This document shows, one piece after another, positions 4,537 to 27,730 of a stretch of DNA of 64,000 bases. Origin of the DNA: Escherichia phage vB_EcoM_SQ17. Location of the stretch: sequence record MW882907; one strand, given 5' to 3'. Both the position numbers and the translations under genes were made by a program. The stretch's first letter is position 1; every line of letters begins with the position of its first letter. The notes beneath the pieces were generated by a model. It was not told where the DNA came from and did no database searches. It saw only the letters and a program-made list of their open reading frames with translations.

Positions 4537-4737
4537 TTATTCGTAGAAGTCGGTAACTGTCCATGCGGAATTGCGATTAGACATTATTTTATTATACTCA
4601 TCTTTAAAAGCAGATTTGAGCATTTGTTCAGTAACAATATGTTCTTCACCTGAAAACGTATTGGTCAAAACATATTTTTTAATTTCAGGGACAACGAGAA
4701 GATGTTGTCCGGTTGAATACTCCATGTTGTTCTCCAT
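4537..4737 (-). CDS. hypothetical protein (45.2-like small ORF)
   Basis: 66-aa ORF, ATG start, between gene 46 and rpbA. Confidence 0.45.
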   Translation of the reverse strand: MENNMEYSTGQHLLVVPEIKKYVLTNTFSGEEHIVTEQMLKSAFKDEYNKIMSNRNSAWTVTDFYE

Positions 4738-4779
4738 TTAATTTGATGTGGTCATTATAACCACATCGTGTTAAAGCGT

Positions 4780-6468
4780 TTATGAAACAGTCATTACAGT
4801 AAATCGTCCAACTTTGCTCATTTGAAGATGTTGTCCATAAGCTTGTGGGTCATGGTCTCTGTGACTAATTATAAACACGTTTGCATCGGTTAGAGAGTTA
4901 AGAATTGTTGAAATAGCTTTAATACCTTCAGAATCAGTCGCGGAATCCATGACTTCGTCCATAATTAATGTATTGATTCTAACACCAGAGACCTTTTCAG
5001 CAATATCTCGCCATGTAAACAACAATGCGATATCGATACGCGCTTTTTCGCCTTGACTAAATGAAGCATAACTGAACTCTTCACGGCCACGTGATTTTAT
5101 AGATTCATTGAATTCTTCATCAATAGAAAACACGTAATCAGCTTCCATGATTTTAAGATAATGGTTAATCTGCTTGTTGAACAGAGGCACATATTTTTTA
5201 ATGATAGCACCTTTAATACCAGAATCTTTTAACATATCTGTGATAATACCACGATGGTATTTTTCAAGAACGATATCAGATTTTGTTTTAATGATTTTAT
5301 CAAGTTCTTTTTGAAGCAAAGCTATCTCATCGGCATGGTCGATAAATTCCGCTGAGGCTTGTTCTATTGCAGCTTTAACTTTCTTAGCTTTATCAATAGT
5401 GGCAATCATTGCTTGTTTCTTGGTACGAATATCAGATGCAAGGTCCTGTTTAGTCTTAACATTAGCTCTATATTCGTCCACTAGGACACTCAGATTATCT
5501 CTGTGACATGTAAGTTGCTCGAATGAGTGATTACATTCGTGAAGCTTATCGGTAATCTTAGAGACAATAGGATCACCCTGGTGCAACTGTGATGCACAAG
5601 TAGGACATGTGCCACCGTCATGATACATCTTAATAACTTTGTTATATGAGTCGATTTTAGATTTAATCAAGAATGCTTCTTGTCCGATCTTGTTGAATGC
5701 CTCAGTAGGGTCTTCATCAAGAACGATATTAAGTAGACGCTCGTTAGCTTCTTCGATTTCTGCTTTTAATGAACGAGCTTCTTTGGCTAGGTCGTCATAC
5801 ATATTCTGTAGACGCGCTACATTATCACCAGATAATTTCTTTTGACGTTCGATATTCTCGTTATAAATCTTAATTTGTTGGATAATACCATCTTTCTTGG
5901 CGTCGAGAACTTGTCCCTGGGAATTAAGTTCTCGAACTTGAGACTTATTGATTTTATCCATTTCAGCGAGTGTGCCGACTTCTAAAAGGTCTTCGACAAG
6001 TTTTCTACGAGCAGGGGTGCTAAGAGCCATGAAAGGGGTATACCCTGCCGTCCCAAGCACAACGATTTGTTTAAAAGACGCGTATGACATTCCGATGCTA
6101 CGTTCAAATTCTTCTTGGAAGTCACGACTGCTGGCAGATTCATCGAGACGAACACCGTCAACGGAGATTTCGAAAATATTGGGCTTTTGGCCACGTTTAA
6201 TGAAGTATTTTTTACCATCGAATTCCATCCAAAGCTCAACTAAGAGCTCTTTCTTGTTCGTGCTATTAATGATTTGCCCTTTCTTAACATCACGAAATGG
6301 TTTACCGAAAAGTCCGAAAGTAATGGCTTCTAACATCGTAGATTTACCACCACCATTTTTACCTGTGATTAAGGTCTTTTGGACTTTATCTAATTGGATA
6401 TCGATAAAATTTTGCCCAACAGACATTATATTTTTATAACGAACACGATTTAATTTAAATGTTTTCAC
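4780..6468 (-). CDS. 46: recombination endonuclease subunit gp46 (Rad50/SbcC-like ATPase)
   Basis: 562-aa ORF; N-terminal Walker A GKNGGGKST, long coiled-coil middle, C-terminal signature and Walker B LIMDEVMDS; start codon appears to be GTG. Confidence 0.9.
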   Translation of the reverse strand: MKTFKLNRVRYKNIMSVGQNFIDIQLDKVQKTLITGKNGGGKSTMLEAITFGLFGKPFRDVKKGQIINSTNKKELLVELWMEFDGKKYFIKRGQKPNIFEISVDGVRLDESASSRDFQEEFERSIGMSYASFKQIVVLGTAGYTPFMALSTPARRKLVEDLLEVGTLAEMDKINKSQVRELNSQGQVLDAKKDGIIQQIKIYNENIERQKKLSGDNVARLQNMYDDLAKEARSLKAEIEEANERLLNIVLDEDPTEAFNKIGQEAFLIKSKIDSYNKVIKMYHDGGTCPTCASQLHQGDPIVSKITDKLHECNHSFEQLTCHRDNLSVLVDEYRANVKTKQDLASDIRTKKQAMIATIDKAKKVKAAIEQASAEFIDHADEIALLQKELDKIIKTKSDIVLEKYHRGIITDMLKDSGIKGAIIKKYVPLFNKQINHYLKIMEADYVFSIDEEFNESIKSRGREEFSYASFSQGEKARIDIALLFTWRDIAEKVSGVRINTLIMDEVMDSATDSEGIKAISTILNSLTDANVFIISHRDHDPQAYGQHLQMSKVGRFTVMTVS

Positions 6469-7315
6469 TTAAATTTTTCCTCATGAATTCAGAAACTAAA
6501 GCCTGTAAAGAACTTTGTATAGGATATCCTAAATTGACTAAATTTTTAGAAAAAGTCACATATTTAGGTTTGTTCATTTTAACCCATTCAACGTAAAGCA
6601 TATCAAAATTTTCCCAATGATATCCTTTTCTTCTAGATTTCAAATGAGTGTCTCTAACTTTAGGATTTTTCCAACTGCGTGAAACTCCAGCCGATAATGA
6701 TTCTCTATATTCGGCTGTTTTAGATATTTTACGACAAGCATCCAAATGTTTTTGTTTATTAATAGGGTCACTAAACCACTTTTGGGTCATAATAGAGACG
6801 GTTTCTTTAAATTCCTTTGAACTTGTCATAATTCTGTGTTTCTTTAAATTTTCCGGATTTTTAAACCATGCTTTTAAAGCTTGACTAATCTTAATTCTAT
6901 TATCCTGATTGGAATAGTATAATGTCATTTTTATAGAATTAACTTTACAAACATTTTCGAATTCTAAAGAATACACCTCGGCTATATTATTTAGTTCATG
7001 CGTTGTACAATTTAAATTAAATCGCCCGGTATACATTCTTTGAAGCGCGTTAATCATCTTGTGGTTGCCAGTTTTTGCCAAAATGCTATGTGCAATAAAA
7101 TGGTTATAATGACTTAAATGACACAAGTTCCATTTACATGTTTTAAAATCTGGAAAAATAGATTTTGGTAGTATATGGTGAACCTGAGTCAGTCCTTTTA
7201 CTTTATTAGTGGAATTAGTTTTTATAAAGTTTAAATACTCATCAAGTCCTTCCCACGAAGGGAAGGAGGTTTTAAGAATTTTATAAATTTGAGTTTCATA
7301 ATCAGTCTTCGTCAT
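6455..7315 (-). CDS. free-standing HNH homing endonuclease-like protein with NUMOD3-type repeats
   Basis: ATG at 7315; motif VHHILPKS...NLCHLSHYNHFIAH (His-His...Asn...His); three C-terminal repeats of W(F/K)(K/S)(N/D)P...(K/T)H; sits between 46 and 47. Confidence 0.6.
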   Translation of the reverse strand: MTKTDYETQIYKILKTSFPSWEGLDEYLNFIKTNSTNKVKGLTQVHHILPKSIFPDFKTCKWNLCHLSHYNHFIAHSILAKTGNHKMINALQRMYTGRFNLNCTTHELNNIAEVYSLEFENVCKVNSIKMTLYYSNQDNRIKISQALKAWFKNPENLKKHRIMTSSKEFKETVSIMTQKWFSDPINKQKHLDACRKISKTAEYRESLSAGVSRSWKNPKVRDTHLKSRRKGYHWENFDMLYVEWVKMNKPKYVTFSKNLVNLGYPIQSSLQALVSEFMRKNLSENI

Positions 7316-7559
7316 TATACGCGTCCTCAATACATGCTTCAGCCATTTTAAGAATAGAGCCAGGAGTATCGTTGTCCATTATATTAAAGCTAAATTCAAT
7401 AGCCCAGTCGGTGCAGACATGAACTGCTTTAACTTCATTGCCTTCAACGCGTAATGGCTCAATCCAATACTTGATAGTGTTCTCGAATCCATCATCGTCT
7501 TTAACGTCCATTTCAACTTCAAGTCGAAGCCCAGCATTATTAAATTCATCTAAAGTCAT
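7302..7559 (-). CDS. hypothetical acidic protein
   Basis: 85-aa ORF, ATG start overlapping gene 47 stop (ATGA); acidic composition. Confidence 0.5.
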   Translation of the reverse strand: MTLDEFNNAGLRLEVEMDVKDDDGFENTIKYWIEPLRVEGNEVKAVHVCTDWAIEFSFNIMDNDTPGSILKMAEACIEDAYNDED

Positions 7560-13374: not shown

Positions 13375-13845
13375 TTAATCATGTTTCCACACCCCATCGG
13401 TATTTGACCAAAGTCGCTGATTATCTGATCCTCGCCACAGCTTTTTAGTCGGAAGATTTTTCTCATACTTCCCATCAATAATAACATCAACATATTTAAG
13501 CATTTCTAGTTGTTTAATATCTTCAAACTTATATCCTGTCCACAACCAAATGCTTTTATTAGGATAAAGATTTTTTACTGTTTGAACGATGCAATGAACA
13601 ACATCTCGGTTATCAGGATAGAGAGGGTCACCTCCGGTTATAGTCAATCCTTCTATATAATCATTATTCAAGCATTCAATTAATTGTTCTAGTGTCTCTC
13701 CAGTGAATGGAATGCCATTTCTAGCATTCCATGTTGATTTATTATAACACCCTTCGCATTTATGCAAACAACCTGTAACGAAAAGAACGACCCTGCATCC
13801 AGGGCCATTCACAAAATCGCAAGGATAAAATCTATCATAATTCAT
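13375..13845 (-). CDS. nrdG: anaerobic ribonucleotide reductase activating protein NrdG (radical SAM)
   Basis: 156-aa ORF with CLHKCEGC radical-SAM cysteine cluster; ATGA overlap with nrdD stop. Confidence 0.9.
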   Translation of the reverse strand: MNYDRFYPCDFVNGPGCRVVLFVTGCLHKCEGCYNKSTWNARNGIPFTGETLEQLIECLNNDYIEGLTITGGDPLYPDNRDVVHCIVQTVKNLYPNKSIWLWTGYKFEDIKQLEMLKYVDVIIDGKYEKNLPTKKLWRGSDNQRLWSNTDGVWKHD

Positions 13846-16704
13846 TGGTGTTTAACCCTATGCATGATTTCTTTATTTTTACCGAGATTAAATCCGCGTT
13901 CGTTCGGATTTCCCAAATAACCGCATGTTCTTCTTATAGTATTCATCTTTTTAGGATCACTTTCTCCACAAACTGAACAAACAAATCCGTTTTCAGTAGG
14001 AGTCATTTCATGGGTACTTCCACATGTAAAACATTTATCTACTGGCATATTAACACCAAAATAATCTAAATGTTGTGCAGCATAATCCCACACGGCCTCA
14101 AGACCTTTTAGGTTATTTTTCATATCAGGAAGTTCAACATAAGAAATGTGACCGCCTGTCGCAATGAAATGATATGGGGCTTCGCGAGAAATCTTTTCAA
14201 ACGGAGTAATATTTTCTTCTACTGAAACATGGAAACTATTAGTGTACCAGCCTTTATCAGTAACATCTTTTACACTTCCATATTTTTCGGTATCAAGTTT
14301 ACAGAAGCGATAGCACAGGTTTTCAGCAGGAGTAGAATACAAACTAAAAGCGAATCCGGTTCTTTCAGTCCATTGTTTAAGATGAATATTCATTTTAGTT
14401 AAAATTTCTTGTCCAATATCACGACCGACAAGAATATTCAATTCGTGAATACCAATGTATCCCAAAGACACTGAACTTCTACCGTTTTTAAATAACTCAA
14501 TTATATCGTCATCAGGTTTAAGACGAACACCGAATGCACCTTCTTGGTAAAGAATAGGAGCAACAGTAGCTTTAACACCCTTTAAAGAACTAATTCTGCA
14601 CATCAATGCTTCAAAACACAGATCCATTCGTTCATTGAATAATTCAACAAATTTCTGTTCATTGAATTGTGTTCCAATATAAGAATCTAACGCAATACGA
14701 GGAAGATTCAGTGTTACAACACCAAGATTATTACGTCCATCAAGAATTTCATTACCAGTCGAATCTTTCCATACACTCAAGAAACTACGGCAACCCATTG
14801 GAGAAACAGGAACAGATGAACCAGTGATAGCTTTATTATTCTTAACTGAAATAATATCAGGATACATTCTTTTGCTTGCACACTCTAGAGCAAGCTGCTT
14901 AATATCGTAGTTCGGGTCGTCTTTATAAAGATTGACACCCTCTTCAACGAACATAACAAGTTTAGGGAAAATAGGAGATATCCCATTGCGACCAAGACCT
15001 TTAATACGATTTTTCAGAATTGCTTTTTGAATCATTCGTTCAGTCCAGTCAGTTCCCGTACCAAATGTAATTGTTACAAAAGGCGTTTGTCCATTAGAGC
15101 TGAAAAGTGTATTTACTTCATCATTATATTCAGCATGAGTCGCAAATTCATGCCCGTTTATATGAAACAACAAAATTTGGATAGTCCATAGATATGCAAC
15201 GTTCTTTTATAGTGCTAGGATGAAAATTTAGCGCTTTAGCTGCTTCTATATAAGACGTATACTTAATACCGTCAACAACCACATATTCAGGAACTTTATG
15301 AATAGTAGTCTTAATACTCAAAACAAGAGGATGAGTTTCGACTTCACTTTCAGTGCAATTTAAATATTCCGCTGCTTTTTTAAAACTTCTAAAAGTTTTA
15401 TTTTTAAGCTTTATCGATACTTGTTTTTTACTTTTTCGACTATTGATATTATTTTGCACATGTTCCTTAGATCTTCCGTTTTTAGCATAATATTCAGCTA
15501 CAGAAGATTTTATATTGTTTTTATGAGATTCGGATAACACTTTACCCTTATGAGCATCTCTTAATTTTTGAATATGTTCTTCAGTATCCGGATGCTTATA
15601 AAACTTTTTACCGCCTATGGATTTATTTAAACACTTTTTGCTATAAAAATATTTACGTATGACCTCTTCTTCATGTTTTAATGCATCTTTATAACTATCA
15701 AATGTTTTTAAAATTATCCATTTAGTAGGTGTATCAGTTTTTAAGCGTTCATTTATATACTTAGATGACGTTGTGTAAGTTTTCCAGTTTGTGGGCTTGT
15801 TTTTAATTGTTCTAAATTTTTTATAACCGATATAAATGTCACCATTAGAAAACTTAACTAAGTATGTAAATGCGTCTTTATCTTTTATTTTAGTACAACG
15901 TCTTTTTATCCATTTCATTGTTTCACCTCGTATTCATAAGATAATCTTATTTATACAAGATGACTGCTGCATGTCGCCATGCAGATTAGACTATATCTTC
16001 ATCTTTCGATGCCGGCCGTTTCGAATAGCATTAGCTTCTATTCTACACCGCTACATTCATCACGGTTAGTCGTTAGGCATTTAGTTCAAAAGAACATTTA
16101 GCACGGGATTGTCTACTAGAGAGGTTCCCCGTTTAGACCGGTTTTACATGAGCCTGAATTAAATTAACTCATACGCCTGGAATGCATCGTATACGTCTTT
16201 TTCTGTTTTAGATTGGGCGTAATTCAACGCATCAGCGATTTGCCATTTTTCTGCATCTTCAACATGTTTAGCGTATGTGCGTTTAACATAAGGAGAAAGT
16301 ACTTTATCTACATTAGCAAATGTAGTTCCGCCGTACTGGTGTGAAGCAACTTGTGCAGTAATTTGTGCCATAATTGCAGTAGCAACACCAATCGATTTAG
16401 GCGTTTCAATTTGAGCATTACCTAGCTTAAATCCGTTTTCAAGCATTCCTTTTAAATCTACTAAACAACAATTAGTAAATGGAAGAGCAGGGGAATAATC
16501 AATATCATGGAAATGGATAATTCCACTTTCATGTGCTTTCATAATAAAAGACGGGACCATATTTTTGGCAATGTGCTTAGACACAATACCAGCCATAAGG
16601 TCCCGTTGAGTTGGAAAAACACGAGAATCTTTATTAGCATTCTCGTTCAAAAGATCTTTATTAGTTTTATGAATTAATCCTTCAATTTCTTTTTCAATTT
16701 TCAT
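13842..16704 (-). CDS. nrdD: anaerobic ribonucleoside-triphosphate reductase NrdD, interrupted by a group I intron
   Basis: Exon 1 about 16165..16704 (MKIEKEIEGLIHK...), exon 2 about 13842..15110 ending with glycyl-radical motif RRTCGYLG; the two reading frames are separated by an intron with its own ORF. Confidence 0.8.
15110..16164 (-). mobile_element. group I intron in nrdD carrying a homing endonuclease ORF (boundaries approximate)
   Basis: Non-coding GC-richer 5' core 15919..16164 contains GAAGATATAGTC (S-element-like) and AACGACUAA; ORF occupies the 3' part as in the T4 nrdD (sunY) intron. Confidence 0.6.
15148..15918 (-). CDS. intron-encoded GIY-YIG homing endonuclease (I-TevII-like)
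   Basis: 256-aa ORF, ATG start, N-terminal GIY-YIG-type motif ...FSNGDIYIGYKKF...; basic C-terminal DNA-binding region. Confidence 0.8.
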   Translation of the reverse strand: MKWIKRRCTKIKDKDAFTYLVKFSNGDIYIGYKKFRTIKNKPTNWKTYTTSSKYINERLKTDTPTKWIILKTFDSYKDALKHEEEVIRKYFYSKKCLNKSIGGKKFYKHPDTEEHIQKLRDAHKGKVLSESHKNNIKSSVAEYYAKNGRSKEHVQNNINSRKSKKQVSIKLKNKTFRSFKKAAEYLNCTESEVETHPLVLSIKTTIHKVPEYVVVDGIKYTSYIEAAKALNFHPSTIKERCISMDYPNFVVSYKRA

Positions 16705-17174
16705 TTTAAACTCTTTTTAAGCTGCTTTTTGAATGAAGCTATTAATTGTGTTTTGGTATCAGATTCATTATATTCAAATCCTCTTTGAAGCATCTCAGCC
16801 ATCATTTCCTCTTTACCTAGTCTTGAGAACTCTTTAGTTTTGTCTGGAACAAAATTAGGATGGATATTATTATCAGAATAATCTTGTTTCAAATAAGCAA
16901 GAAGAGCTTCAAGCCATTCGAGGTAGTCGACATCACGTCCTTTAAGACCGGAACGGTTGAACTTATGCTTCATTTGACCTTCTGCTGCATTGCACAGATT
17001 ACAGAGTAACCCACGAACTCTACCTGCTTTTGGCCCGTTTAATTCATGGTCGTGGTCAAGATGGTTACCTTGAACATCAGGGTCTAATTCACGGTGGCAA
17101 ATAGGACACTTACCATTCTGTGCATCATAAAATTTTTGTTTTTCTTCTTTGTATAATTTGCCAGATAATAACAT
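16701..17174 (-). CDS. 49: endonuclease VII (Holliday junction resolvase) gp49
   Basis: 157-aa ORF MLLSGKLYKEEKQKFYDAQNGKCPICHREL...HLDHDHELNGPKAGRVRGLLCNLCN; zinc-binding cysteines and catalytic His/Asp/Glu typical of T4 endo VII. Confidence 0.85.
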   Translation of the reverse strand: MLLSGKLYKEEKQKFYDAQNGKCPICHRELDPDVQGNHLDHDHELNGPKAGRVRGLLCNLCNAAEGQMKHKFNRSGLKGRDVDYLEWLEALLAYLKQDYSDNNIHPNFVPDKTKEFSRLGKEEMMAEMLQRGFEYNESDTKTQLIASFKKQLKKSLK

Positions 17175-19443: not shown

Positions 19444-20393
19444 TATAACACCTCAATGACATTTCGTAAACCATCAGCTTTTGCATTCAGAGCTTTTAAT
19501 GATTTAGTTTGTTTTGCAATCTGGGCTTCGACTTCTTTCAGACGAGATTTGAGATATTCGCGTTCTTCTCTTAAATTATCAACTTTTTCTACTTTAGGTT
19601 CTTTAATAGGCTTAGGCTTATACTCGTTAGGGTTCTTCAACTTAATTTGAATGCGAGAACTGTATAACATTGAATCGTTATCTTCGGATTCGTCGAACGT
19701 TTCAACAACATCCATAGTCTCTAACAATGTAATAAGTTTATAAGACAACGAACGAATAGTTTTGTTGTGCTTATTAATTTCTTCGGCTTTCATGGTACCG
19801 AGATTACGTGAGTAGTAATAAGGAACCTGGATATCAATTGACAATGATGCGTTACCATTACCAGTTGGTTTGAATACTGCAGTAACCCAATCTTTAACAT
19901 GAACTTTATTTGTACGACCATCACCGCCTGTGAATAATTTACGTGAATGTTTAAAAAGCATATTCACTTGATTATTAAATTCACAAGCAAATTTATCAGC
20001 AAATTTAGTTTCAGGAATGGTAGATAACCAATCAGCCAAATGAGTCTTTTTAACATCATTAACAATAGTGAATTCAACCAAATCGGTTTTAGATGTCACA
20101 GATTTAATAAAGCTCGGCTTCATAAAGTTTTTAATGTTATCGCGAGCTACAGTAGAAGATAATAAACGAGAACGTTTGAACCATTGAAGCAGTGTCCCTA
20201 ATGAATGAGAATATGCATTCTGAGTATCTTTACAGATATGATTTTCTTGGCCTGTGTATGTACCAAAATCGCGAAGAATACCACTTACTACAACTCGGTG
20301 TGGAACATCAAATCCTAATGAACCAGAAGCACGTTGGGCATGAACGTTAGCGATAAGACCTGCAAAATAATCAATGTAATGTGAACGTGTCAT
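19443..20393 (-). CDS. hypothetical protein with C-terminal coiled coil
   Basis: 316-aa ORF, ATG start, own early promoter upstream; C-terminal heptad-like region LREEREYLKSRLKEVEAQIAKQTKSLKALNAKADGL. Confidence 0.55.
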   Translation of the reverse strand: MTRSHYIDYFAGLIANVHAQRASGSLGFDVPHRVVVSGILRDFGTYTGQENHICKDTQNAYSHSLGTLLQWFKRSRLLSSTVARDNIKNFMKPSFIKSVTSKTDLVEFTIVNDVKKTHLADWLSTIPETKFADKFACEFNNQVNMLFKHSRKLFTGGDGRTNKVHVKDWVTAVFKPTGNGNASLSIDIQVPYYYSRNLGTMKAEEINKHNKTIRSLSYKLITLLETMDVVETFDESEDNDSMLYSSRIQIKLKNPNEYKPKPIKEPKVEKVDNLREEREYLKSRLKEVEAQIAKQTKSLKALNAKADGLRNVIEVL

Positions 20394-20420
20394 AATATTT
20401 TCCTCTCGTTAAGATAGAAA

Positions 20421-20450
20421 GATTATACTCCAACCATCCTTGGTTGTAAA
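20421..20450 (-). promoter_or_regulatory. T4-type early promoter with palindromic spacer
   Basis: Minus strand GTTTAC-AACCAAGGATGGTTGGAG-TATAAT; spacer contains CAACCA-AGGA-TGGTTG inverted repeat. Confidence 0.5.
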
Positions 20451-20455
20451 CTGAT

Positions 20456-21391
20456 TTATGATTTTAATGCATTCATTGCGTTAAAAAGTTTAGAGTACTG
20501 CAACTGGAGCTTGGTAACTACTTGTTGAGCATCACGAAGCTTAGCTTGTGCTTTGTCAAGTTCAACAGACAGTTGGTCCACAGTGGCTTTGATTTGATTA
20601 TAATAGTAATCTTCGGCAGGAAGAAGACCGTTAGAGATTTCCAGTTTAGTCGACGGTGAAGTGTATATAGATGGAGCAGTAAAATATGCACCTTGAACTT
20701 CAGCATTGCCAATTGGGGTTGTAGTAATTGACGCTTCGAACGTTGCATTTTCCTTTTTAAGATTTTGATAGTATTCAGAGTCTTTGTGCCACCATGGCGC
20801 AGGAACCTTTTTACCAATAGATACACGAGCCTGGATAGCGATATGGCCCTTATTCTTGATAGGGTTGATAATATTAAGCTCACGAGAATAAATTGCTTTA
20901 ATCTGGTGGATATTATCACCTAACACTTCCAACGCTTGGTGGAATACACGAGCAACGTTATCATTCTTAGGTTTATACGTAAGAGTGAACTCGTTCTCAC
21001 TGATAACCATGATTTCTAACTTATCGTAAGTATATTTCAAATGTTTCATGTTAATTGCTTGAGGACGAATACGAGAAGCAATGGCCATCAGATTGTTAAG
21101 GTTATTCCTGAACTGCTTAGCGAAATATTGTCCTTCACCGCCAATACAAAAATTACGAAGTTTCTGTTTGGCTAATAAACGGCTGAACTCACCATTTTTA
21201 ATGAACTCTTTAACGGGTGTGTTAGTAACGCATTCAAATTGAGTAAACTTACGAGAATTAATCCCATAATATGAACAGATTTCCTCAATCTCTTCAGGAG
21301 TCTTTACAGGCATACGGATAGGATTAGGTCCTGGGGTATATGCGTTCGAGGTAAATTCTTTGATAAGTTCTCTACGTGTAATAGAAGCCAT
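20456..21391 (-). CDS. hypothetical protein with C-terminal coiled coil
   Basis: 311-aa ORF, ATG start; C-terminus VDQLSVELDKAQAKLRDAQQVVTKLQLQYSKLFNAMNALKS. Confidence 0.55.
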   Translation of the reverse strand: MASITRRELIKEFTSNAYTPGPNPIRMPVKTPEEIEEICSYYGINSRKFTQFECVTNTPVKEFIKNGEFSRLLAKQKLRNFCIGGEGQYFAKQFRNNLNNLMAIASRIRPQAINMKHLKYTYDKLEIMVISENEFTLTYKPKNDNVARVFHQALEVLGDNIHQIKAIYSRELNIINPIKNKGHIAIQARVSIGKKVPAPWWHKDSEYYQNLKKENATFEASITTTPIGNAEVQGAYFTAPSIYTSPSTKLEISNGLLPAEDYYYNQIKATVDQLSVELDKAQAKLRDAQQVVTKLQLQYSKLFNAMNALKS

Positions 21392-21417
21392 TTTATATTC
21401 CTCATGTTGAAAAATTT

Positions 21418-21447
21418 ATTATACTCCAACCATCCTTGGTTGTACAT
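21418..21447 (-). promoter_or_regulatory. early-type promoter sharing the same palindromic spacer
   Basis: 27 nt TACAACCAAGGATGGTTGGAGTATAAT identical to the promoter at 20421..20450. Confidence 0.5.
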
Positions 21448-22442
21448 CATTCCTTAAGAAGTTTTACTACTTGAATAAGATTAGCTCGTTCCGTTTTATT
21501 TTTACCATTTAAGCCTGCTAATCGTGAGATTTCATCGTCAGTCTGTTGAATAGTTACATTAAGTTCGTTAATCAAAGCTTCAAAGTATTTGATTTGCTCA
21601 GCATGTTTTGATTCAAATTTCTGAACCGGAATAACGTCTTGGTTTAGTTCATCAATAAGGTCTTTAAGAGCATCTTCTTGGTTGATATCATATTCAACTT
21701 CTTTTATTTCTTCAACGAGCTCGTCTTTATATCTAACGTCTTTTAGTCCTGGTGCTGGTCCTGAAATCTCTTCTTTAAGAGTACAAACATATCCAATACG
21801 GTATCCAATGCCGTCTCGCTTGATAACAACTTCGTCGATAAATCCACAATGTTTAAGACCAGAGCCGATTAGGTCAAAATATCCTTGACGTCGTCCTTCA
21901 AACGTTACACGAACTACTAAGACAGTTTTACCTGCAACCTTTTGAAGCTCACATTTATAAAAGTCTGTTGAACCTGAATAACGTGGATGAGTTTTAAAGT
22001 TCATCTGACGATCTAGGCCCATTTGTAAGCGTGCTGATACGGCCATAAAACGTGTTTGGTTCTCGTTAAGATGAGCAACAATCCATTTCAAAGGCATTTT
22101 ACACTGTTCACGACCGAACAAATCAGTACGTCCTAGATTACGCAGAATGTTGTTAGAGTTAATCATCGACAGAACGTTAAGTTTATTCAGCGCGCTGAAG
22201 ATTCCATCGGCCATTGATTTTCCGTAACCTTTACACGCTTTAATAAGCGCTCGCGGTAGATTAGTATAAATTTCAGACGGCATATGAAAATCAAATTTAC
22301 TAGTCAGTAATTGATGAACTTGGATAGCAATTTGCTCATAATTAAGTGCTCTGCGATCATTATGGTCTTTAAACCATACTTTAATCTGTGAAGCACATAA
22401 ACCGTTAATTTCATGTTTTACCGCATCAGATGTAATGCTCAT
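21447..22442 (-). CDS. hypothetical protein with C-terminal coiled coil
   Basis: 331-aa ORF, ATG start; acidic and coiled-coil C-terminal third. Confidence 0.55.
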   Translation of the reverse strand: MSITSDAVKHEINGLCASQIKVWFKDHNDRRALNYEQIAIQVHQLLTSKFDFHMPSEIYTNLPRALIKACKGYGKSMADGIFSALNKLNVLSMINSNNILRNLGRTDLFGREQCKMPLKWIVAHLNENQTRFMAVSARLQMGLDRQMNFKTHPRYSGSTDFYKCELQKVAGKTVLVVRVTFEGRRQGYFDLIGSGLKHCGFIDEVVIKRDGIGYRIGYVCTLKEEISGPAPGLKDVRYKDELVEEIKEVEYDINQEDALKDLIDELNQDVIPVQKFESKHAEQIKYFEALINELNVTIQQTDDEISRLAGLNGKNKTERANLIQVVKLLKE

Positions 22443-22504
22443 AACTATTTCCTCAGATTGAATTGGAACTCAAAACCATTATAACCCGTCCTTGGGTAAA
22501 GCGT

Positions 22505-23032
22505 TTATGCGTGAACCGTCTTTAAACGTTCTTCAAATTTCCGAAGAGTACTAATACGTTCTGCTTTCTGTTTTGTATAGTTTGCAATACGTTCTGAAGT
22601 GAGAGCGTATCGTTCATTTACTGTTTCTTTCATGAAGTCAGGGATTTCACGAGAAGCTTTAATTTCATCAAACTTATCGAGTACTGCCTGGTCTTCAGCG
22701 ATTAAATTTTCGTACATCTCGATATCTTTCTTGATAAACTCGATATCTTCCTGTGTTACTTTGGATAAACGAGATGCTTTATCCTTTTTGTACTGCTCGT
22801 TAGTTTCACGAGACCAGAATAATGTACGTTTTTTGTTAGTGTTTTTGTAGACTTCCACAATTCCAACTGAATCGATGATAGCAATCCAATTCCAGCGAGA
22901 TTTGAAAATCTGACCTCCGTCCACGGTAATCTCGTTACCATAAGCAACGTCATTAAAGAACTTGCTTTGTGCTTCAGATTTAAATTTACCGTCGTTATAA
23001 TTTACCAGGTTGAAAATATCTTTAGCGTTCAT
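22505..23032 (-). CDS. hypothetical protein
   Basis: 175-aa ORF, ATG start, preceded by early promoter. Confidence 0.5.
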   Translation of the reverse strand: MNAKDIFNLVNYNDGKFKSEAQSKFFNDVAYGNEITVDGGQIFKSRWNWIAIIDSVGIVEVYKNTNKKRTLFWSRETNEQYKKDKASRLSKVTQEDIEFIKKDIEMYENLIAEDQAVLDKFDEIKASREIPDFMKETVNERYALTSERIANYTKQKAERISTLRKFEERLKTVHA

Positions 23033-23059
23033 GTTTTACCTCCAGTAGTTGATAGGTCT

Positions 23060-23088
23060 ATAATAACATAACCATAGACCTTGTAAAC
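23060..23088 (-). promoter_or_regulatory. T4-type early promoter
   Basis: Minus strand GTTTAC, 17-nt spacer, TATTAT; part of the recurring tgataggtctataataacat motif. Confidence 0.5.
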
Positions 23089-23090
23089 AA

Positions 23091-23480
23091 CTAAAAGAAA
23101 CTTTTTTCGGTATTTTTTCCACTGAACCAAACCGATTTAGGAATTTTCTGTAATTTTTCAGATTTAAGTTTCTCTTCCTGTTCTTTCTTGTATGCATCCT
23201 TGTCGTACTGGAACAACTCTAGGGCATTCTTTTGTAGACGGTCTAAGGTAATTAAGGCTTTAGTTTTTCCTTTCAAGGAAGAGTCCTGGCGAACCTCCTC
23301 GCTATATTGCATCGTAGAACTAACCATACGATGAGCATACAGTTCGACTGCGGCTTTAATTTTTTGCATAAAATCCATAACATAGCCCTCTTTGATTTGT
23401 ACAACATTATTTTTAAATATTTCTATGCCCTCAGTAGGTTCCTGGTGTCCTTCTTTGAGGTAAGCCATATGATTATTCAT
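23091..23480 (-). CDS. hypothetical protein
   Basis: 129-aa ORF, ATG start. Confidence 0.5.
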   Translation of the reverse strand: MNNHMAYLKEGHQEPTEGIEIFKNNVVQIKEGYVMDFMQKIKAAVELYAHRMVSSTMQYSEEVRQDSSLKGKTKALITLDRLQKNALELFQYDKDAYKKEQEEKLKSEKLQKIPKSVWFSGKNTEKSFF

Positions 23481-23517
23481 CTTTATGGCTTTTGTTACCT
23501 CAGAACTTCCTATAAGC

Positions 23518-24519
23518 TTATTTCAGTAAAGTAACTTCAGAGATTTCCTCCCAACCATCTTTATCAGTTGAAATAAAATCTGCTACGTAAAGAGCCGTAC
23601 GTAATGATACATTGCGAAGACGAGATACGTTAGCCTTCATCCAGGACAATGCTTTATACGTTTCTGCATCTGTCAGACCACGTTTCTGCATCATGTCAGT
23701 AGATAATATTACATCTTCAACTCGAACCATAATCTCTTCATTAGAGTGTACTCCAAGGTCGAGATACACTGAACGAGATACTAAAGCTTGAAGGTGTGGG
23801 GCAAGTTTCGAACCGCGTTCTAACTCTTTATCGATATCAACGTTTGTAATGAAAACGATAGTACCTTCAAACTCAAATTCTTTATCAATACCCTTATCAT
23901 CGAGATAAGATGACGCAGTGCTCCAACAAACTTTGCGTTTATCTCCAGTATCTAATGCTGCTTTAAGAAGGTTCAAGATGTCCATATCTGAGAATACGTC
24001 AACGTCGTCGATTAAGAGAACGCTGTCTGCATCACGGTTGAGCCAAAGTTGTTCGTAAAGGCCAATACCAGAGATTTTACCATTAATGCTTTTGTATTTG
24101 ATGAAACCGTTATCATTAGCATTATTAAGTGCTTTATCCAGAGAATACGTCTTACCAATACCAGCTGCACCTGAAATAATGAGTGAACGAATTTTGCCAT
24201 CGATAATGCCATTCGTCATCATGTTCATTACTTTAAAGCGTTTGTTGATACGAGTTTTCATATCTTCAGTGCTTTCAACAACTGCAACTGGTGATGTCTC
24301 AGCTCCTTCCATTATGATGTCTGATTTGAAGACCCATACTCCACGTTCAGAACCATCGATCATAACGAAAATTTTACCGTCACCTAAGTGGGAACATTCA
24401 GGATTAAGCTTTGCCGGGAACCATGTCTTTGTGGCAACATAAGAACCAGAGATTTCGTTATTACGATAGATACCTTTTTTGATTTGAACGTTGAACATTT
24501 TATTCTCCAATTTACTCAT
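23518..24519 (-). CDS. P-loop NTPase (AAA-like ATPase) of unknown function
   Basis: 333-aa ORF; Walker A ISGAAGIGKTYSL, Walker B SVLLIDDVDVF, sensor-like FITN. Confidence 0.6.
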   Translation of the reverse strand: MSKLENKMFNVQIKKGIYRNNEISGSYVATKTWFPAKLNPECSHLGDGKIFVMIDGSERGVWVFKSDIIMEGAETSPVAVVESTEDMKTRINKRFKVMNMMTNGIIDGKIRSLIISGAAGIGKTYSLDKALNNANDNGFIKYKSINGKISGIGLYEQLWLNRDADSVLLIDDVDVFSDMDILNLLKAALDTGDKRKVCWSTASSYLDDKGIDKEFEFEGTIVFITNVDIDKELERGSKLAPHLQALVSRSVYLDLGVHSNEEIMVRVEDVILSTDMMQKRGLTDAETYKALSWMKANVSRLRNVSLRTALYVADFISTDKDGWEEISEVTLLK

Positions 24520-24536
24520 TTCGTTTCGATAGGTCT

Positions 24537-24565
24537 ATAATAACATGTTTAAAGCAAAAGTAAAC
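24537..24565 (-). promoter_or_regulatory. T4-type early promoter
   Basis: Minus strand GTTTAC, 17-nt spacer, TATTAT immediately upstream of the ATPase ORF. Confidence 0.5.
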
Positions 24566-24567
24566 AA

Positions 24568-24786
24568 TTATTTGCGACGAGATTTTTTGGTAAGAGGTTG
24601 AAAGAACACTGCTTTACCTGCAGGAGTCAAAGTAACTCGTAATGCATTACCTATTCCCAAGGATGCTTTAACTAAACCTTTAGCTTTCAGTTCACCGAAT
24701 GCTTGACGCTGGTCTGCATCACGAGTGTTAACCATAAGACCTTTATCACCTGCTTCACGAATCATTTCTAACATTTTGGTTTTCAT
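24568..24786 (-). CDS. small basic protein (possible DNA-binding)
   Basis: Track ORF trimmed to ATG downstream of promoter: MKTKMLEMIREAGDKGLMVNTRDADQRQAFGELKAKGLVKA...; AGGAG Shine-Dalgarno. Confidence 0.45.
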   Translation of the reverse strand: MKTKMLEMIREAGDKGLMVNTRDADQRQAFGELKAKGLVKASLGIGNALRVTLTPAGKAVFFQPLTKKSRRK

Positions 24787-24814
24787 TTTGTTCTCCTCTT
24801 GTTTTGATAGGTCT

Positions 24815-24845
24815 ATAATAACATATCCTAAAAGCATGTACACTA
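24815..24845 (-). promoter_or_regulatory. early-type promoter
   Basis: Minus strand TGTACA, 17-nt spacer, TATTAT; same -10 context as promoters at 23060 and 24537. Confidence 0.4.
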
Positions 24846-24873
24846 CTTTTTAAAAATATTTTGACCCCCTAAA

Positions 24874-24887
24874 GGGCCCGAAGGCCC
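24874..24887 (-). terminator. GC hairpin (GGGCC-TTCG-GGCCC) after NTase ORF
   Basis: Perfect 5-bp GC stem with TTCG tetraloop directly 3' of the stop; no clean U-tract, so may be an mRNA-stability hairpin. Confidence 0.35.
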
Positions 24888-24890
24888 TTA

Positions 24891-25880
24891 TCATTTATAG
24901 TATGAATTGTGGTTTTCTAAGTAGACTTGCTCAAGGAAATCATCCCAGAAACTCATATCTACTTTTTGTTGCATACAGTTCTTAGCGGCTTGTTCTGACG
25001 CATGTTCAACTTGGTCAACTATATCTTCTAAGAATTCCTGTACGGTTTTAAACGTATGTTTACCAAGCTTAACATCGAGAATAAATGGAGCATCCTGAAG
25101 TGGGTAAACCAGGTCTCCGGTTTTGTAAATTTCCAATAGTTGAAGTCCACCGCGACATGCATGACTCAGTGCTTTCCAGTCAATACCTTCGTTAGCTTCT
25201 GCCTTACGAGCACGTTCACCATAGTTCTCTTCTAGTTTAACAAGGATGGCATTGAACTCTTTATTGGTTAACGTGTCTTGGAATTTACGGTCCAACAGAT
25301 TATAGAATGTTTGCTTACCTGTTTTCTCGTTTTCGGTTTCAACCCATGAAGCAAATTCACCTACAGGCAGAACATTCTTCATATGTGATAAACGAATTAC
25401 TGCACCATTATCAAAGTATTGTCCCCATTCATTAGAACGTTTAAGGGCTTGACGAAGAACAGCCAGTCGAGAACCCTTGACACCGTATTTAGAAGCTTGC
25501 TTACGGACATACCCTAAATAAGATTTCATGTTAGTGGTATAGAAACGAGACCTGTTATCTTGAATATACTTCCATACATCAGGCAAATCAGATTTAACTA
25601 CTAAACTTGGTGGAGTGTGAAGCATATCTAATGCGACAGTTTCGCCATCCGCAGCTAGTTTAAAGAAATATTTGAGACTATACAACTCATGGTCCACGTC
25701 GTCTTTTGTGTTCTTCGAAGCGGTGTTGTTAGTGTTCTTGCTCATATGTTCTTTAACGTTACCTGTCAAGATATCACGAGCATGAGGGACGTAAATTTCT
25801 TTAAAATCAACGTCAGATTCAGGAGTAGACGTTCCATAAAGGTGGCTACCAAAGTAGCCTTTCATAATTGTTTTCATCAT
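24891..25880 (-). CDS. nucleotidyltransferase-fold protein (Pol-beta-like NTase motif)
   Basis: 329-aa ORF; N-terminal GSHLYGTSTPESDVDF (G-S ... D-x-D) plus downstream acidic residue; rest helical. Confidence 0.55.
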   Translation of the reverse strand: MMKTIMKGYFGSHLYGTSTPESDVDFKEIYVPHARDILTGNVKEHMSKNTNNTASKNTKDDVDHELYSLKYFFKLAADGETVALDMLHTPPSLVVKSDLPDVWKYIQDNRSRFYTTNMKSYLGYVRKQASKYGVKGSRLAVLRQALKRSNEWGQYFDNGAVIRLSHMKNVLPVGEFASWVETENEKTGKQTFYNLLDRKFQDTLTNKEFNAILVKLEENYGERARKAEANEGIDWKALSHACRGGLQLLEIYKTGDLVYPLQDAPFILDVKLGKHTFKTVQEFLEDIVDQVEHASEQAAKNCMQQKVDMSFWDDFLEQVYLENHNSYYK

Positions 25881-26350
25881 TTAGCCTTATATTCAAGAGT
25901 AGGACAGACTTTTTCTTTACGAGCTTTAAGGTATTCACCTATTAATGATTTCTTACGTTCAATAGGCTCTAGTCCATTTTTAATTCGTTCTTGGTTTTGT
26001 GCAATGAACTCAATTTCTTTATAATATTTTCTGTCGTTATATTTGTCTAACAACCAAGACGGACCAATTACCAACCCGGCAGCAATAAAAGCCATGACTG
26101 CTACAATTAAAATGCCTACACCAATTGAGGCTGGAACTAATGTCCATAGACTGCTAAAAACAAAGAATTTAGTTAAAATTTCCTGGCCAATGATTACGAC
26201 TGCTGCTAAAATCGCAAATCCAATAATTGAAACAGCCAATACTGGGATTAACGTTTTCCAAAAATAAGCACACAATGTTTTCGGGCGATTCCATGTACTA
26301 TTGAACGCGGCATAAATTTTAAAGTGCCAAGAGTTTTCATTGATAATCAT
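25877..26350 (-). CDS. membrane protein
   Basis: 157-aa ORF with three hydrophobic helices (LIPVLAVSIIGFAILAAVVII; FVFSSLWTLVPASIGVGILIVAVMAFIAAGLVIG). Confidence 0.5.
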   Translation of the reverse strand: MIINENSWHFKIYAAFNSTWNRPKTLCAYFWKTLIPVLAVSIIGFAILAAVVIIGQEILTKFFVFSSLWTLVPASIGVGILIVAVMAFIAAGLVIGPSWLLDKYNDRKYYKEIEFIAQNQERIKNGLEPIERKKSLIGEYLKARKEKVCPTLEYKAK

Positions 26351-26359
26351 AATAATTCC

Positions 26360-26890
26360 TTATTTCAAAGTCGGGATAATAGAATCAAGATAAGCTTTAA
26401 GAGCAACTGCTTCATCTTTGTCTAATGTAATGATATGTTGACGAAGGTCATCAATTTGACGAATAACTACGACATCACCATCTTCATAAGAAGGATTAAC
26501 GCCTAGGACTGTTGTAGAGTCAGGGTTGGCCAGATTTGTAATAAAAGCATTACGGCATTTAGCCCATTGAAGTTTGGCCTTTTTGGCTGTTTCAGATTCC
26601 ATTAATTCTTTCACCTTAGTGACGAATGTTTTCCAATTATTAATAGAAAAACATTCGTCTTCAGTTTCGATATTAACCCCACTATAAAGTCCATGATAAA
26701 AACGAACTTGAAGGTCTTCGTCAATGTTAATTACAGATGCATGGCCCGGTGGATTGAGTTTCAAAATCTTGTCCAGTTCCATAGGAAGAATAGTAACCGC
26801 ATCATCTTCTTGTGTCAGAACGTAAGCACAACCACGTTTTTCTATACATAAATCACCAAACAACTCAGTCGTTTCAATTACAGTTTTCAT
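26360..26890 (-). CDS. hypothetical protein
   Basis: Track ORF trimmed to first ATG (MKTVIETTELFGD...), 176 aa. Confidence 0.5.
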   Translation of the reverse strand: MKTVIETTELFGDLCIEKRGCAYVLTQEDDAVTILPMELDKILKLNPPGHASVINIDEDLQVRFYHGLYSGVNIETEDECFSINNWKTFVTKVKELMESETAKKAKLQWAKCRNAFITNLANPDSTTVLGVNPSYEDGDVVVIRQIDDLRQHIITLDKDEAVALKAYLDSIIPTLK

Positions 26891-26891
26891 A

Positions 26892-27071
26892 TTATTCACC
26901 AATTAAAGTTTCAACAAAATTCACCAAAGCATTCTGGCAAGCATCAACCTGATTTTCATAAAAGTCTCCGCTATCATTTACCGCATGATAAGCTACATCA
27001 TTCAAATCTGAATCGGCTTCACGTAAGTCACGGATAAGGTCCATCAATTTATTAGCTTGTTCACGGGTCAT
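26892..27071 (-). CDS. hypothetical small acidic protein (below ORF-track cutoff)
   Basis: Hand translation MTREQANKLMDLIRDLREADSDLNDVAYHAVNDSGDFYENQVDACQNALVNFVETLIGE; stop 2 nt before next ATG. Confidence 0.3.
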   Translation of the reverse strand: MTREQANKLMDLIRDLREADSDLNDVAYHAVNDSGDFYENQVDACQNALVNFVETLIGE

Positions 27072-27205
27072 TTTACCATACTCGTTTCAATAAGATTCAC
27101 CATGCCGTTTACCATGTTATAAGTAAACATCGGATAATTGTATTGTACTACAATATAAGCGATAAGCAAAAGTTTCATTTTGTTCTCCATTTGTTTTGGT
27201 AGGAC

Positions 27206-27236
27206 TACTATAACATAGTCCTATCAAGTTGTAAAC
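27206..27236 (-). promoter_or_regulatory. T4-type early promoter
   Basis: Minus strand GTTTAC, 18-nt spacer, TATAGT; member of the ataggactactataaca repeat family. Confidence 0.5.
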
Positions 27237-27469
27237 TACCGATTATGTTTTAAATGTTGATAAAGTTCTTCAACTTGTTTAGGGTCCAAAACAATTAAGT
27301 CATTTTCTTGGCGAAGATAAATCCATCCCTTATCCCCAGGACCATTTTTACAAAACATCACCACCATATCATCATCTTCAGCGCTTTCAGGTAAAAGTTC
27401 AAGTACACCGTCTTCAGATTTTCCAGTATAATCGTAAAGCATAATGTCCTCACATAATCTCGTTAACAT
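27236..27469 (-). CDS. hypothetical protein
   Basis: 77-aa ORF, acidic. Confidence 0.45.
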   Translation of the reverse strand: MLTRLCEDIMLYDYTGKSEDGVLELLPESAEDDDMVVMFCKNGPGDKGWIYLRQENDLIVLDPKQVEELYQHLKHNR

Positions 27470-27629
27470 ACATTTGCAATTCAGTGTGCGTATCAGCCAT
27501 CTTTTTCATAGCTCTGTTAATATCGATGTCTCCATCTTCGCAACCATGAGCATTTTCCCAATCAGACACCGCATTAGCATACTCTTCAATCAAAAACATT
27601 AACTTAGAAATTTTTTCTTTACGTGACAT
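27450..27629 (-). CDS. hypothetical small protein
   Basis: Track ORF trimmed to ATG downstream of promoter and AGGAGA SD: MSRKEKISKLMFLIEEYANAVSDWENAHG... Confidence 0.4.
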   Translation of the reverse strand: MSRKEKISKLMFLIEEYANAVSDWENAHGCEDGDIDINRAMKKMADTHTELQMYVNEIM

Positions 27630-27656
27630 AACGTTCTCCTCTAGTAAGTAAGGTCT

Positions 27657-27685
27657 ACTATAACACAACCTGAGGAGAAGTAAAC
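27657..27685 (-). promoter_or_regulatory. T4-type early promoter
   Basis: Minus strand GTTTAC, 17-nt spacer, TATAGT. Confidence 0.5.
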
Positions 27686-27694
27686 TGCTAAATG

Positions 27695-27722: not shown

Positions 27723-27730
27723 CAGGTAAA

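Follow-up and report, generated by a model that had tools for sequence, protein, structure and literature searches.

Does the interrupted nrdD locus of an RB69-like phage encode one protein that is restored by RNA splicing, or two polypeptides separated by an endonuclease gene? The window analysed here is the whole 64,000-nt stretch of Escherichia phage vB_EcoM_SQ17 (MW882907). The original prediction described its nrdD as split by a group I intron with an I-TevII-like ORF; this proved correct once the boundaries had been adjusted, with nrdD on the minus strand. We consider it highly probable (roughly 93%) that the locus holds a mobile, self-splicing group I intron of the T4 nrdD (sunY) type, within the class III RNR gene of an RB69-like (Mosigvirus-like) phage.

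Exon-intron organization of nrdD

The splice limits of nrdD were fixed to the nucleotide by alignment to the intron-less nrdD of RB69, giving the following layout.

16704..16167, minus strand: nrdD exon 1, 538 nt, comprising 179 codons and the first base of Tyr180 (RB69 nrdD alignment, spliced translation)
16166..15122, minus strand: group I intron of T4 nrdD (sunY) type, 1045 nt, UAAUUU...AUAAUG (RB69 alignment)
15918..15148, minus strand: homing endonuclease ORF, 256 aa, an I-TevII homologue with a GIY-YIG N-terminal domain and a NUMOD1 C-terminal module
15121..13842, minus strand: nrdD exon 2, 1280 nt, with the glycyl-radical motif RRTCGYLG at its end (RB69 alignment; Pfam NRDD and Gly_radical)
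13845..13375, minus strand: nrdG (activase), overlapping the end of nrdD (ORF list, domain matches)

The intron begins with UAAUUU directly after the terminal U of exon 1, ends on a G, and interrupts codon Tyr180 in phase 1; in the comparison to RB69, it is the window stretch without a match (15122..16168). Its excision in silico yields a stop-free 605-aa NrdD, encoded by a spliced ORF of 1818 nt, the length of RB69 nrdD, and the predicted ligated junction reads ...GCGUAUGAGU joined to AUGAAGUAAAU.... The spliced product is 98.3% identical to T4 NrdD, collinear with the crystallised T4 protein (PDB 1H78; 1-605 to 1-605), and carries the class III RNR domains PF13597 (NRDD; E=1e-170) and PF01228 (Gly_radical; E=2e-25), while the adjacent NrdG matches Fer4_12 and Radical_SAM in Pfam. 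A 3' splice site after ...ACUCAUG, giving AYE-S-EYNDEV, was also considered and rejected; the RB69 alignment places the site 18 nt further, after AUAAUG.

Both nrdD ORFs of the original prediction are present, but neither coincides with an exon. The 181-aa ORF (16159..16704, minus strand) reads through into the intron with its last two codons and stop. The 443-aa ORF (13842..15173, minus strand) does end with RRTCGYLG, but its start is not that of exon 2: it is an ORF-calling artefact, since the first 17 codons, from a TTG at 15173, are intronic and share sequence with the 3' end of the endonuclease ORF. These sequence comparisons point to nrdD being one spliced 605-aa gene, and not two fragments and an endonuclease.

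Ribozyme core and comparison with T4

The structured segment at the 5' end of the intron is non-coding, as predicted, with limits of 16166..15919 instead of 16164..15919. Its description as GC-richer is only mildly apt: its G+C content is 39.5%, where the window has 37.0%, the exons have 35.8% and the endonuclease ORF has 28.7%. The covariance-model search suggested as a check matched RF00028 (Intron_gpI) at 68.7 bits (E=1.2e-17; gathering score 50) over model positions 1-253 of 253, when a slice of 301 nt (15900..16200) was searched; the T4 intron, as a positive control, scored 105.3 bits. RF00028 was not matched in the whole-window Rfam gathering scan or in a 3.7-kb E-value scan. We rejected these null results as evidence of intron absence, the T4 control and the 301-nt slice both having matched, and attribute the miss to a speed-filter artefact, because the short slice scores well above threshold. 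As a point of method, a whole-window Rfam scan here missed an intron that a short-slice search recovered. The core and its helices are as follows.

16192..15967, minus strand: RF00028 match, catalytic core P1 to P9
16173..16147, minus strand: P1, UAUGAGU (16173..16167) with the internal guide GCUCAUG (16153..16147) (sequence, pair check)
16141..16136 with 16017..16012, minus strand: P3, enclosing the P4-P7.2 block (whole region 16012..16141)
16132..16127 with 16108..16103, minus strand: P4, inside P3, as is P5
16095..16084, minus strand: P6 (MFE folds, pair comparison)
16071..16067 (5' strand) and 15993..15989 (3' strand), minus strand: P7
16066..16047, minus strand: P7.1 (MFE folds, pair comparison)
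16043..16023, minus strand: P7.2 (MFE folds, pair comparison)
16011..16000, minus strand: P8, in region 15967..16011 (covariance match, folds)
15984..15967, minus strand: P9 hairpin with a GNRA loop (covariance match, folds)
15153..15133, minus strand: P9.2-like 3'-terminal hairpin, GCAUGA/UCAUGC, containing the endonuclease stop codon

In P1 the 5' splice site coincides with a U.G pair, and folding predicts the same helix in T4. When the two lineages were folded independently by MFE, the same helices emerged; a script compared them explicitly, pair by pair, with those of the proven T4 nrdD intron. Among 66 helix pairs, 47 are invariant, 2 differ on one side, 17 on both sides and 0 are broken, a count that draws on two lineages only and so has limited statistical power. 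Compensatory changes occur in P3 (2), P4 (2), P6 (3), P7.1 (2) and P7.2 (3), and 4 of the 6 pairs of P9.2 are compensatorily changed relative to GUAGAG/CUCUAC in T4. A search of IMG/VR for a third endonuclease lineage for covariation found none, the single protein giving no match and the two-lineage alignment one T4-type locus. A MAFFT alignment of the two mini-introns was left unused for pair counts because it misaligned P8, P9.2 and the RBS hairpin. The P9.2 stem was also flagged by a terminator scan, on the opposite strand, and, judged by eye, P10 offers only weak pairing to exon 2, of about 3 bp.

The RF00028 match, the U.G pair of P1, the terminal G and the 17 compensatory changes bear out the group I elements first proposed. 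The insert also has the traits of a T-even IA2-like (nrdD/sunY) intron, namely P7.1 and P7.2 between P7 and P3', an ORF 3' of P9 and a short 3'-terminal domain. It is a recognisable group I ribozyme of the T4 nrdD type, for which homology with T4 would predict self-splicing. Transcription of nrdD would run through the intron, and the core (P1, P3-P9, P7.1, P7.2) would fold, with help from the P9.2 domain at the 3' end, past the ORF. Exogenous guanosine would attack behind the U that forms the U.G pair of P1 (16167); the 5' exon would then attack behind the terminal G (15122), and the mRNA made of the ligated exons would encode intact, 605-aa NrdD.

The gene could instead exist in pieces, split by an endonuclease cassette, its halves being translated separately and reassembling without RNA splicing. 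Aeromonas phage Aeh1 offers a precedent in nrdA/mobE, where an RNR gene of a T4-like phage is likewise interrupted by a homing endonuclease gene and the active enzyme is reassembled (PMC3653736), and both the output of ORF callers (181-aa and 443-aa ORFs) and most GenBank records (two nrdD CDSs and an endonuclease) would agree with such an arrangement. However, the Aeh1 insert has no ribozyme and its halves are separate proteins, whereas the ORF here is flanked by a complete group I ribozyme whose helices are maintained by compensatory change. Moreover, the ends of the insert form an exact splice-site pair (U/...G/) whose removal restores the RB69 frame base for base, and its T4 homologue, inserted at the same site, is a textbook example of self-splicing (PMC2988022). 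The C-terminal ORF has neither an ATG nor a Shine-Dalgarno sequence of its own; its TTG start lies within the endonuclease gene, with none at the exon boundary. A gene in pieces should have no ribozyme and should have independent downstream translation signals, and this locus has the reverse. Separate translation is therefore extremely improbable. Nor is the arrangement a chance one, given the E-value of the covariance match, the frame restored by splicing and the collinearity with 1H78.

The preferred reading, a spliced intron, is closely mirrored by T4 nrdD (sunY)/I-TevII. Both introns interrupt the Tyr codon of ...AYE/Y/EVN... at exactly the same point, behind its first base, as the original prediction implied, and they share one architecture: a contiguous 5' core with P7.1 and P7.2, an ORF 3' of P9, and a P9.2 tail. 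Both lineages lack a P2 between P1 and P3. The likeness stops short of identity, however. The intron is 1045 nt long against 1033 nt in T4, and its P7.2 and RBS hairpin are longer and its P8 shorter. The core is 76.5% identical to that of T4, the ORF 64% at the nucleotide and 56% at the amino-acid level, and the 3' tail 61.5%, compared with 94% for the exons. Judged by these values, the element represents a diverged second (sister) lineage of that classic intron and not the T4 intron proper. The T4 td/I-TevI intron belongs to the same T-even phage intron family but occupies a different host gene, and its ORF lies within the P6 loop, not 3' of P9; to our knowledge, I-TevI shows no detectable relationship outside the GIY-YIG domain. 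Over a 42-nt stretch (P3'-P4-P5-P4'), the present intron and the td introns from many phages have 100% identity, and in the td intron, too, a late promoter and a hairpin control the expression of a GIY-YIG endonuclease (PMC2988022).

The endonuclease ORF and its control elements

The 256-aa ORF is present as described. It matches T4 I-TevII over its full length, with 144/257 residues identical (56%) and 2 gaps (E=1e-101), in keeping with its original assignment. In Pfam, residues 9-86 match SegE_GIY-YIG (26.6 bits, barely over the cut-off of 25) and residues 171-193 match NUMOD1 (25.3 bits against a cut-off of 22.8); the GIY-YIG motif reads FTY...x10...YIGY, and the protein also falls within PHROG homing-endonuclease families. 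A PDB sequence search (E<=10) returned no related solved structure. Identity to I-TevII by codon position is 64/74/52%, and the third position is thus the most diverged, as expected under purifying selection. Two elements precede the ORF.

15955..15948, minus strand: TATAAATA, T4 late-promoter consensus; the endonuclease ATG follows 29 nt downstream
15963..15923, minus strand: RBS-sequestering hairpin, hiding the Shine-Dalgarno sequence GAGGUG (15929..15924) (ViennaRNA folds)

The late-promoter motif has only 7 matches in the 64 kb, and it recurs at the corresponding place in the T4 intron. The hairpin comprises an 11-bp outer stem (UCAUCUUGUAU/AUACGAGGUGA) around a 6-bp inner stem, and the 5' strand of the outer stem ends within TATAAATA, upstream of the predicted late transcription start. 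The T4 intron is similarly equipped, with a late-promoter motif, a homologous 8-bp RBS stem (CCUCGUAU/AUACGAGG) that sequesters the ribosome-binding site, and a collinear endonuclease. By analogy with T4, the ribosome-binding site of the endonuclease would be locked in the hairpin on read-through transcripts, whereas late transcripts starting just downstream of TATAAATA would be without the 5' strand of the hairpin, so that the endonuclease would be made only late in infection. A sigma-70 promoter scan of the region gave 3 sites against 10 expected. In T4, a homing-site/operator mimic upstream of the ORF has been proposed for autorepression (PMC2988022). The best match to such a mimic over the RBS here, 17/24 at the expected place, is equalled by 23/100 shuffles and is indistinguishable from chance.

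Distribution and lateral movement of the intron

The RB69-like backbone first proposed is upheld by 95.9% identity to RB69 over 92% of the comparable window, against 75.7% over 65% for T4. The host backbone is thus Mosigvirus-like, as opposed to Tequatrovirus for T4, and, unlike in T4, nrdD and nrdG have no mobC between them. The nrdD junction is uninterrupted in 621 of 693 phage records, including the backbone relatives RB69 and phi25-307, intron-less alleles of the kind whose comparison the original prediction called for, and an intron is found in about 68. The same intron lineage occurs in about 44 deposited phage genomes, with a full-length intron DNA identity of 99.5-100% in 43 records, and endonuclease protein at least 99% identical in 40 (100% in at least 18 of the matches listed). 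Its carriers include both Mosigvirus (PNJ-6, JK45, SHSML-52-1) and Tequatrovirus (IME537, HY03). Nothing of substance differs in the other carriers, whose records mostly list two nrdD fragments and a 'homing endonuclease' or 'hypothetical protein'.

Relative to IME537 (Tequatrovirus) and SHSML-52-1 (Mosigvirus), the window has 2 differences per 1045 intron nt and 89-104 per 1818 exon nt, a divergence of 0.2% against 5-6% (Fisher p ~1e-15 to 1e-18); the neighboring gene 49 diverges by 18% from Tequatrovirus carriers. The flank of the insertion site carries a co-conversion signature.

15121..15062, minus strand: presumed endonuclease target and co-conversion tract, the first 60 nt of exon 2

These 60 nt are identical in the window, IME537 and SHSML-52-1, and BYEP01 matches over the first 20 nt shown. 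By comparison, the first 40 nt contain 6 silent differences in RB69 and 9 in T4. A near-identical intron in two genera whose exons lie 5-6% apart argues for recent spread by lateral homing over Tequatrovirus and Mosigvirus, and the lateral acquisition suggested at the outset accords with the intron-less RB69 and phi25-307 and with intron identities of 99.7-100% among carriers. In a mixed infection, the enzyme would be expected, by homology with T4, to cut intron-less nrdD a few bases into exon 2, and through repair the recipient would acquire the intron together with a little of the adjoining exon.

The patchy occurrence among RB69-like phages might instead reflect an ancestral intron and many independent losses. 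Precise loss is known for group I introns, and about 90% of T4-like nrdD genes are intron-less. Ancestral presence, however, predicts intron divergence at least equal to that of the exons, the opposite of the values above for both the exons and gene 49, and is very improbable. A further possibility is that the ribozyme splices while the endonuclease is dead, like T4 I-TevIII, leaving a decaying, immobile intron now inherited only vertically. Frameshifted ORFs in F1, FN and 236Ecol005PP (matches in two pieces) are compatible with such decay, as is BYEP01, an intron derivative whose ORF is wholly deleted, a stage expected late in the life cycle of a homing element. In the window, by contrast, the ORF is unbroken over its full length and matches active I-TevII collinearly, and it is shared without change by at least 18 of the genomes listed; moreover, a near-identical intron in two genera with diverged exons and a common exon 2 flank requires recent horizontal movement. 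Decay is an unlikely account of the present copy.

The intron favored here, spliced and recently mobile, is not new: it is a textbook kind of mobile element already present in deposited genomes, and it opens no new biological question. No paper describing the lineage was found in the literature searched, which excluded the T-even intron survey of Sandegren & Sjoberg 2004 (JBC). The practical value of the analysis lies in annotation, as most deposited genomes record two nrdD fragments and a stray endonuclease. It also illustrates, clearly and in quantifiable terms, the recent homing of an intron between two phage genera, and indicates that the classic T4 nrdD site holds at least two deeply diverged intron/endonuclease lineages, along with an ORF-deleted derivative. 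Tentatively, this could be an old sister lineage whose endonuclease may have a target preference unlike that of I-TevII, such that two rival introns compete for one nrdD site and this one now crosses the Tequatrovirus-Mosigvirus boundary. The 9 silent differences in the first 40 nt of exon 2 and a protein identity of only 56% fit a different target preference; if real, it would make the locus a natural system for the co-evolution of homing-endonuclease specificity with the co-converted flank.

The interrupted nrdD gene and its limits

The nrdD gene, encoding the class III (anaerobic) ribonucleotide reductase, lies between nrdG and gene 49. The three minus-strand ORFs of 181, 256 and 443 aa named in the original prediction are all present in the ORF list, and alignment of the sense strand with the uninterrupted RB69 nrdD (1818 nt) and with T4 nrdD placed the exon and intron boundaries:

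16701..17174, gene 49 (endonuclease VII), flanking, Pfam-confirmed
16159..16704, minus, ORF for the NrdD N-terminus (181 aa)
16167, minus, 3' end of exon 1 (...GCGUAUGAGU)
16166..15122, minus, intron of 1045 nt, beginning UAAUUU and ending AUAAUG
15148..15918, minus, endonuclease ORF (256 aa)
15121, minus, start of exon 2 (AUGAAGUAAAU)
13842..15173, minus, 443-aa ORF with the glycyl-radical motif at its end
13375..13845, minus, nrdG, flanking, Pfam-confirmed

These alignments reveal only one insertion, at the T4 insertion point, which follows the first base of the Tyr codon within AYE-Y-EVN. Given these splice limits, two details of the predicted ORFs are artefacts: the 181-aa ORF owes its last two codons to read-through into the intron, and the opening 17 codons of the 443-aa ORF (from the TTG at 15173) fall inside the intron. 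Joined in silico, the exons form an ORF of 1818 nt with no internal stops, whose 605-aa product is 98.3% identical to T4 NrdD and 97.7% to RB69 NrdD, matches both the NRDD and Gly_radical Pfam families, and aligns over residues 1-605 to residues 1-605 of the crystallised T4 enzyme (1H78). At the downstream end, nrdD and nrdG overlap directly (13842..13845), as in RB69; in T4 the HNH endonuclease gene mobC, absent from the window, lies between them (4575..5207 of the T4 locus).

A group I ribozyme of the T4 nrdD type

At the gathering cut-off, an Rfam scan of the whole 64-kb window returned no group I core, and a permissive (E-value) scan of 3.7 kb missed it too, returning nothing relevant. As control, the T4 locus scored 105.3 bits for RF00028; its nrdD intron is experimentally established as self-splicing (PMC2988022). 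When a 301-nt slice (15900..16200) was searched, RF00028 matched at 16192..15967 (minus) over its full model length with 68.7 bits (E=1.2e-17), above the gathering score of 50, which bears out the predicted group I intron. The control and the short-slice match together show that the earlier negatives were filter artefacts; negative whole-window scans for structured RNA are not to be trusted in AT-rich phage DNA. That nrdD might instead be a gene in pieces, its halves translated separately as in the Aeromonas phage Aeh1 nrdA/mobE arrangement, is contradicted by the ribozyme in the insert, by boundaries falling exactly after a U at the 5' site and a G at the 3' site, and by an exon 2 boundary that offers no translation start.

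Helices of this group I intron were assigned by comparison with the T4 intron:

P1, UAUGAGU/GCUCAUG, with a U.G pair at the splice site
P3, CCGGUC/GGCCGG
P4, P5 and P6 (P6, GUUC/GAAC)
P7, GACUA/UAGUC
P7.1, ACCG/CGGU
P7.2, GAAUAG/CUAUUC
P8, CAUC-GAAA-GAUG
P9, CUGCAUG-GCGA-CAUGCAG
3'-terminal hairpin past the ORF, GCAUGA/UCAUGC, containing the ORF stop codon

Separate MFE folds of the ORF-less window and T4 introns recover the same set except P7, which, being a pseudoknot, is beyond MFE prediction. Compared pair by pair with T4, 47 of 66 helix pairs are unchanged, two are altered on one side and 17 on both sides with pairing kept, and none is broken; coming from only two lineages, the counts serve as a tally and not as a statistical test. 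The double changes fall in P3 (2), P4 (2), P6 (3), P7.1 (2), P7.2 (3), P8 (1) and P9.2 (4). Two functional ribozymes of one family would be expected to show just this pattern.

The 3' strand of the terminal hairpin, ACUCAUGC (15133..15140, minus), nearly repeats the internal guide GCUCAUG (16147..16153, minus), a likeness not present in T4. MFE folding of the window intron without its ORF replaces P1 by a long-range helix between the 5' exon end and part of ACUCAUGC; the likeness could reflect chance or a competing pairing. Short core segments within 16043..16137 (minus) are 97-100% identical to introns of unrelated phages: one 42-nt block spanning P3'-P4-P5 has matches in the td introns of numerous T-even phages, a second (P6/P7, also 42 nt) in elements adjoining HNH endonuclease genes of Salmonella and Escherichia phages whose genomes measure ~84-89 kb, and longer stretches match Campylobacter phages at 81-83%.

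The intron endonuclease and its expression signals

T4 I-TevII (258 aa) and the 256-aa protein align collinearly, with 56% identity, 72% positives and two gaps. The window protein exceeds the Pfam thresholds for NUMOD1 and, marginally, SegE_GIY-YIG, and is placed by PHROG in homing-endonuclease families, all in keeping with the predicted GIY-YIG, I-TevII-like enzyme. No solved structure is detectably related to it by sequence. Identity to the I-TevII gene by codon position (64/74/52%) is consistent with purifying selection. Its target preference could differ from that of I-TevII.

The endonuclease ATG is preceded, 29 nt upstream, by a perfect T4 late-promoter motif, TATAAATA (15955..15948); the 64-kb window holds only seven matches, and the T4 intron carries the motif at the equivalent position. 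In an 11-bp stem, the Shine-Dalgarno sequence GAGGUG (15929..15924) makes up the 3' strand, and the 5' strand ends within TATAAATA, ahead of the predicted start of late transcription; the T4 intron has a homologous 8-bp stem. Translation of T4 intron endonucleases is blocked on read-through transcripts and permitted on late ones (PMC2988022). The arrangement matches, and from it we infer that T4-type late-only translation control may operate here. A proposed autorepression operator in the window was indistinguishable from chance.

An intron lineage shared across two genera

In local BLAST with 50 kb of each phage, RB69 covers 92% of the window at 95.9% identity and T4 65% at 75.7%, and phi25-307 and SHSML-52-1, whose records are Mosigvirus, are among the best database matches to 20000..44999; the backbone is RB69-like, as predicted. 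Within nrdD only the intron (15122..16168) is absent from RB69. The gene is uninterrupted in RB69 and phi25-307, and a 300-nt spliced-junction query found an uninterrupted junction in 621 of 693 phage records. The window-form endonuclease (at least 95% identity to the window protein) occurs in 44 records and the T4 form (~56%) in about two dozen. Window-form carriers include the Mosigvirus phages SHSML-52-1, JK45 and PNJ-6 and the Tequatrovirus phages IME537, HY03 and BYEP01.

Divergence of the window from two carriers
IME537 (Tequatrovirus): intron, 2 differences/1045 nt; nrdD exons, 89/1818 nt; gene 49, 82.1% identical
SHSML-52-1 (Mosigvirus): intron, 2 differences/1045 nt; nrdD exons, 104/1818 nt; gene 49, 94.9% identical

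This contrast between intron and exons (Fisher p ~1e-15 to 1e-18), spanning two genera with intron-less relatives, upholds the suggested lateral acquisition; ancestral presence followed by repeated loss is contradicted by an intron whose divergence is ~25-fold lower than that of its host gene. Over its first 60 nt, exon 2 is the same in the three carriers compared, as are the 20 nt compared in BYEP01; intron-less RB69 has six silent differences, and T4 nine within the first 40 nt. This common flank is a co-conversion signature, at the expected cutting place of I-TevII-type enzymes. Against T4, the intron is 76.5% identical in the core, 64% in the ORF and 61.5% in the tail, far more diverged than the exons (94%). 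On these comparisons the window intron represents an old, separate lineage, transferred recently.

Frameshifted and deleted copies in other carriers would fit an immobile, decaying element, a reading contradicted for the window copy by its intact ORF and the near-identity of the intron across genera. One such copy, in BYEP01 (1649..1993 of its record, annotated with two nrdD CDSs), is a window-lineage intron whose endonuclease ORF has lost 700 nt in a clean internal deletion, shortening the intron to 345 nt; the deletion ends at the near-repeats AAAAGACGTTG and AAGAACGTTG, and the P9.2 loop carries one more substitution. It represents an expected degeneration stage in the life cycle of a homing element.

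The mobile intron is a textbook kind of element; 43 deposited genomes contain its sequence at 99.5-100% identity, many of them with a 100% identical endonuclease protein, and their records show a homing endonuclease flanked by two nrdD fragments. No paper singling out this second lineage was found in the searchable literature.

Three more stretches, each 250 nt or longer, lack a BLAST match in RB69's syntenic 50 kb: 28876..29454 (small ORFs, one a DUF7202 protein), 33742..34320 (a 208-aa ORF with no Pfam match) and 41575..41830. ARAGORN found no tRNA genes in the whole window; the syntenic region holds tRNA-Arg and tRNA-Met in RB69 and eight tRNAs in T4, and the RB69 tRNA segment is unmatched, homology resuming at 39752. 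Between gene 46 and a 46.1-like ORF, 6455..7330 (minus) encodes a free-standing 291-aa HNH-type homing endonuclease without a significant Pfam domain (phrog_655, E=4e-31; phrog_12434, 'HNH endonuclease'), and both RB69 and T4 lack a counterpart of 6468..7293.
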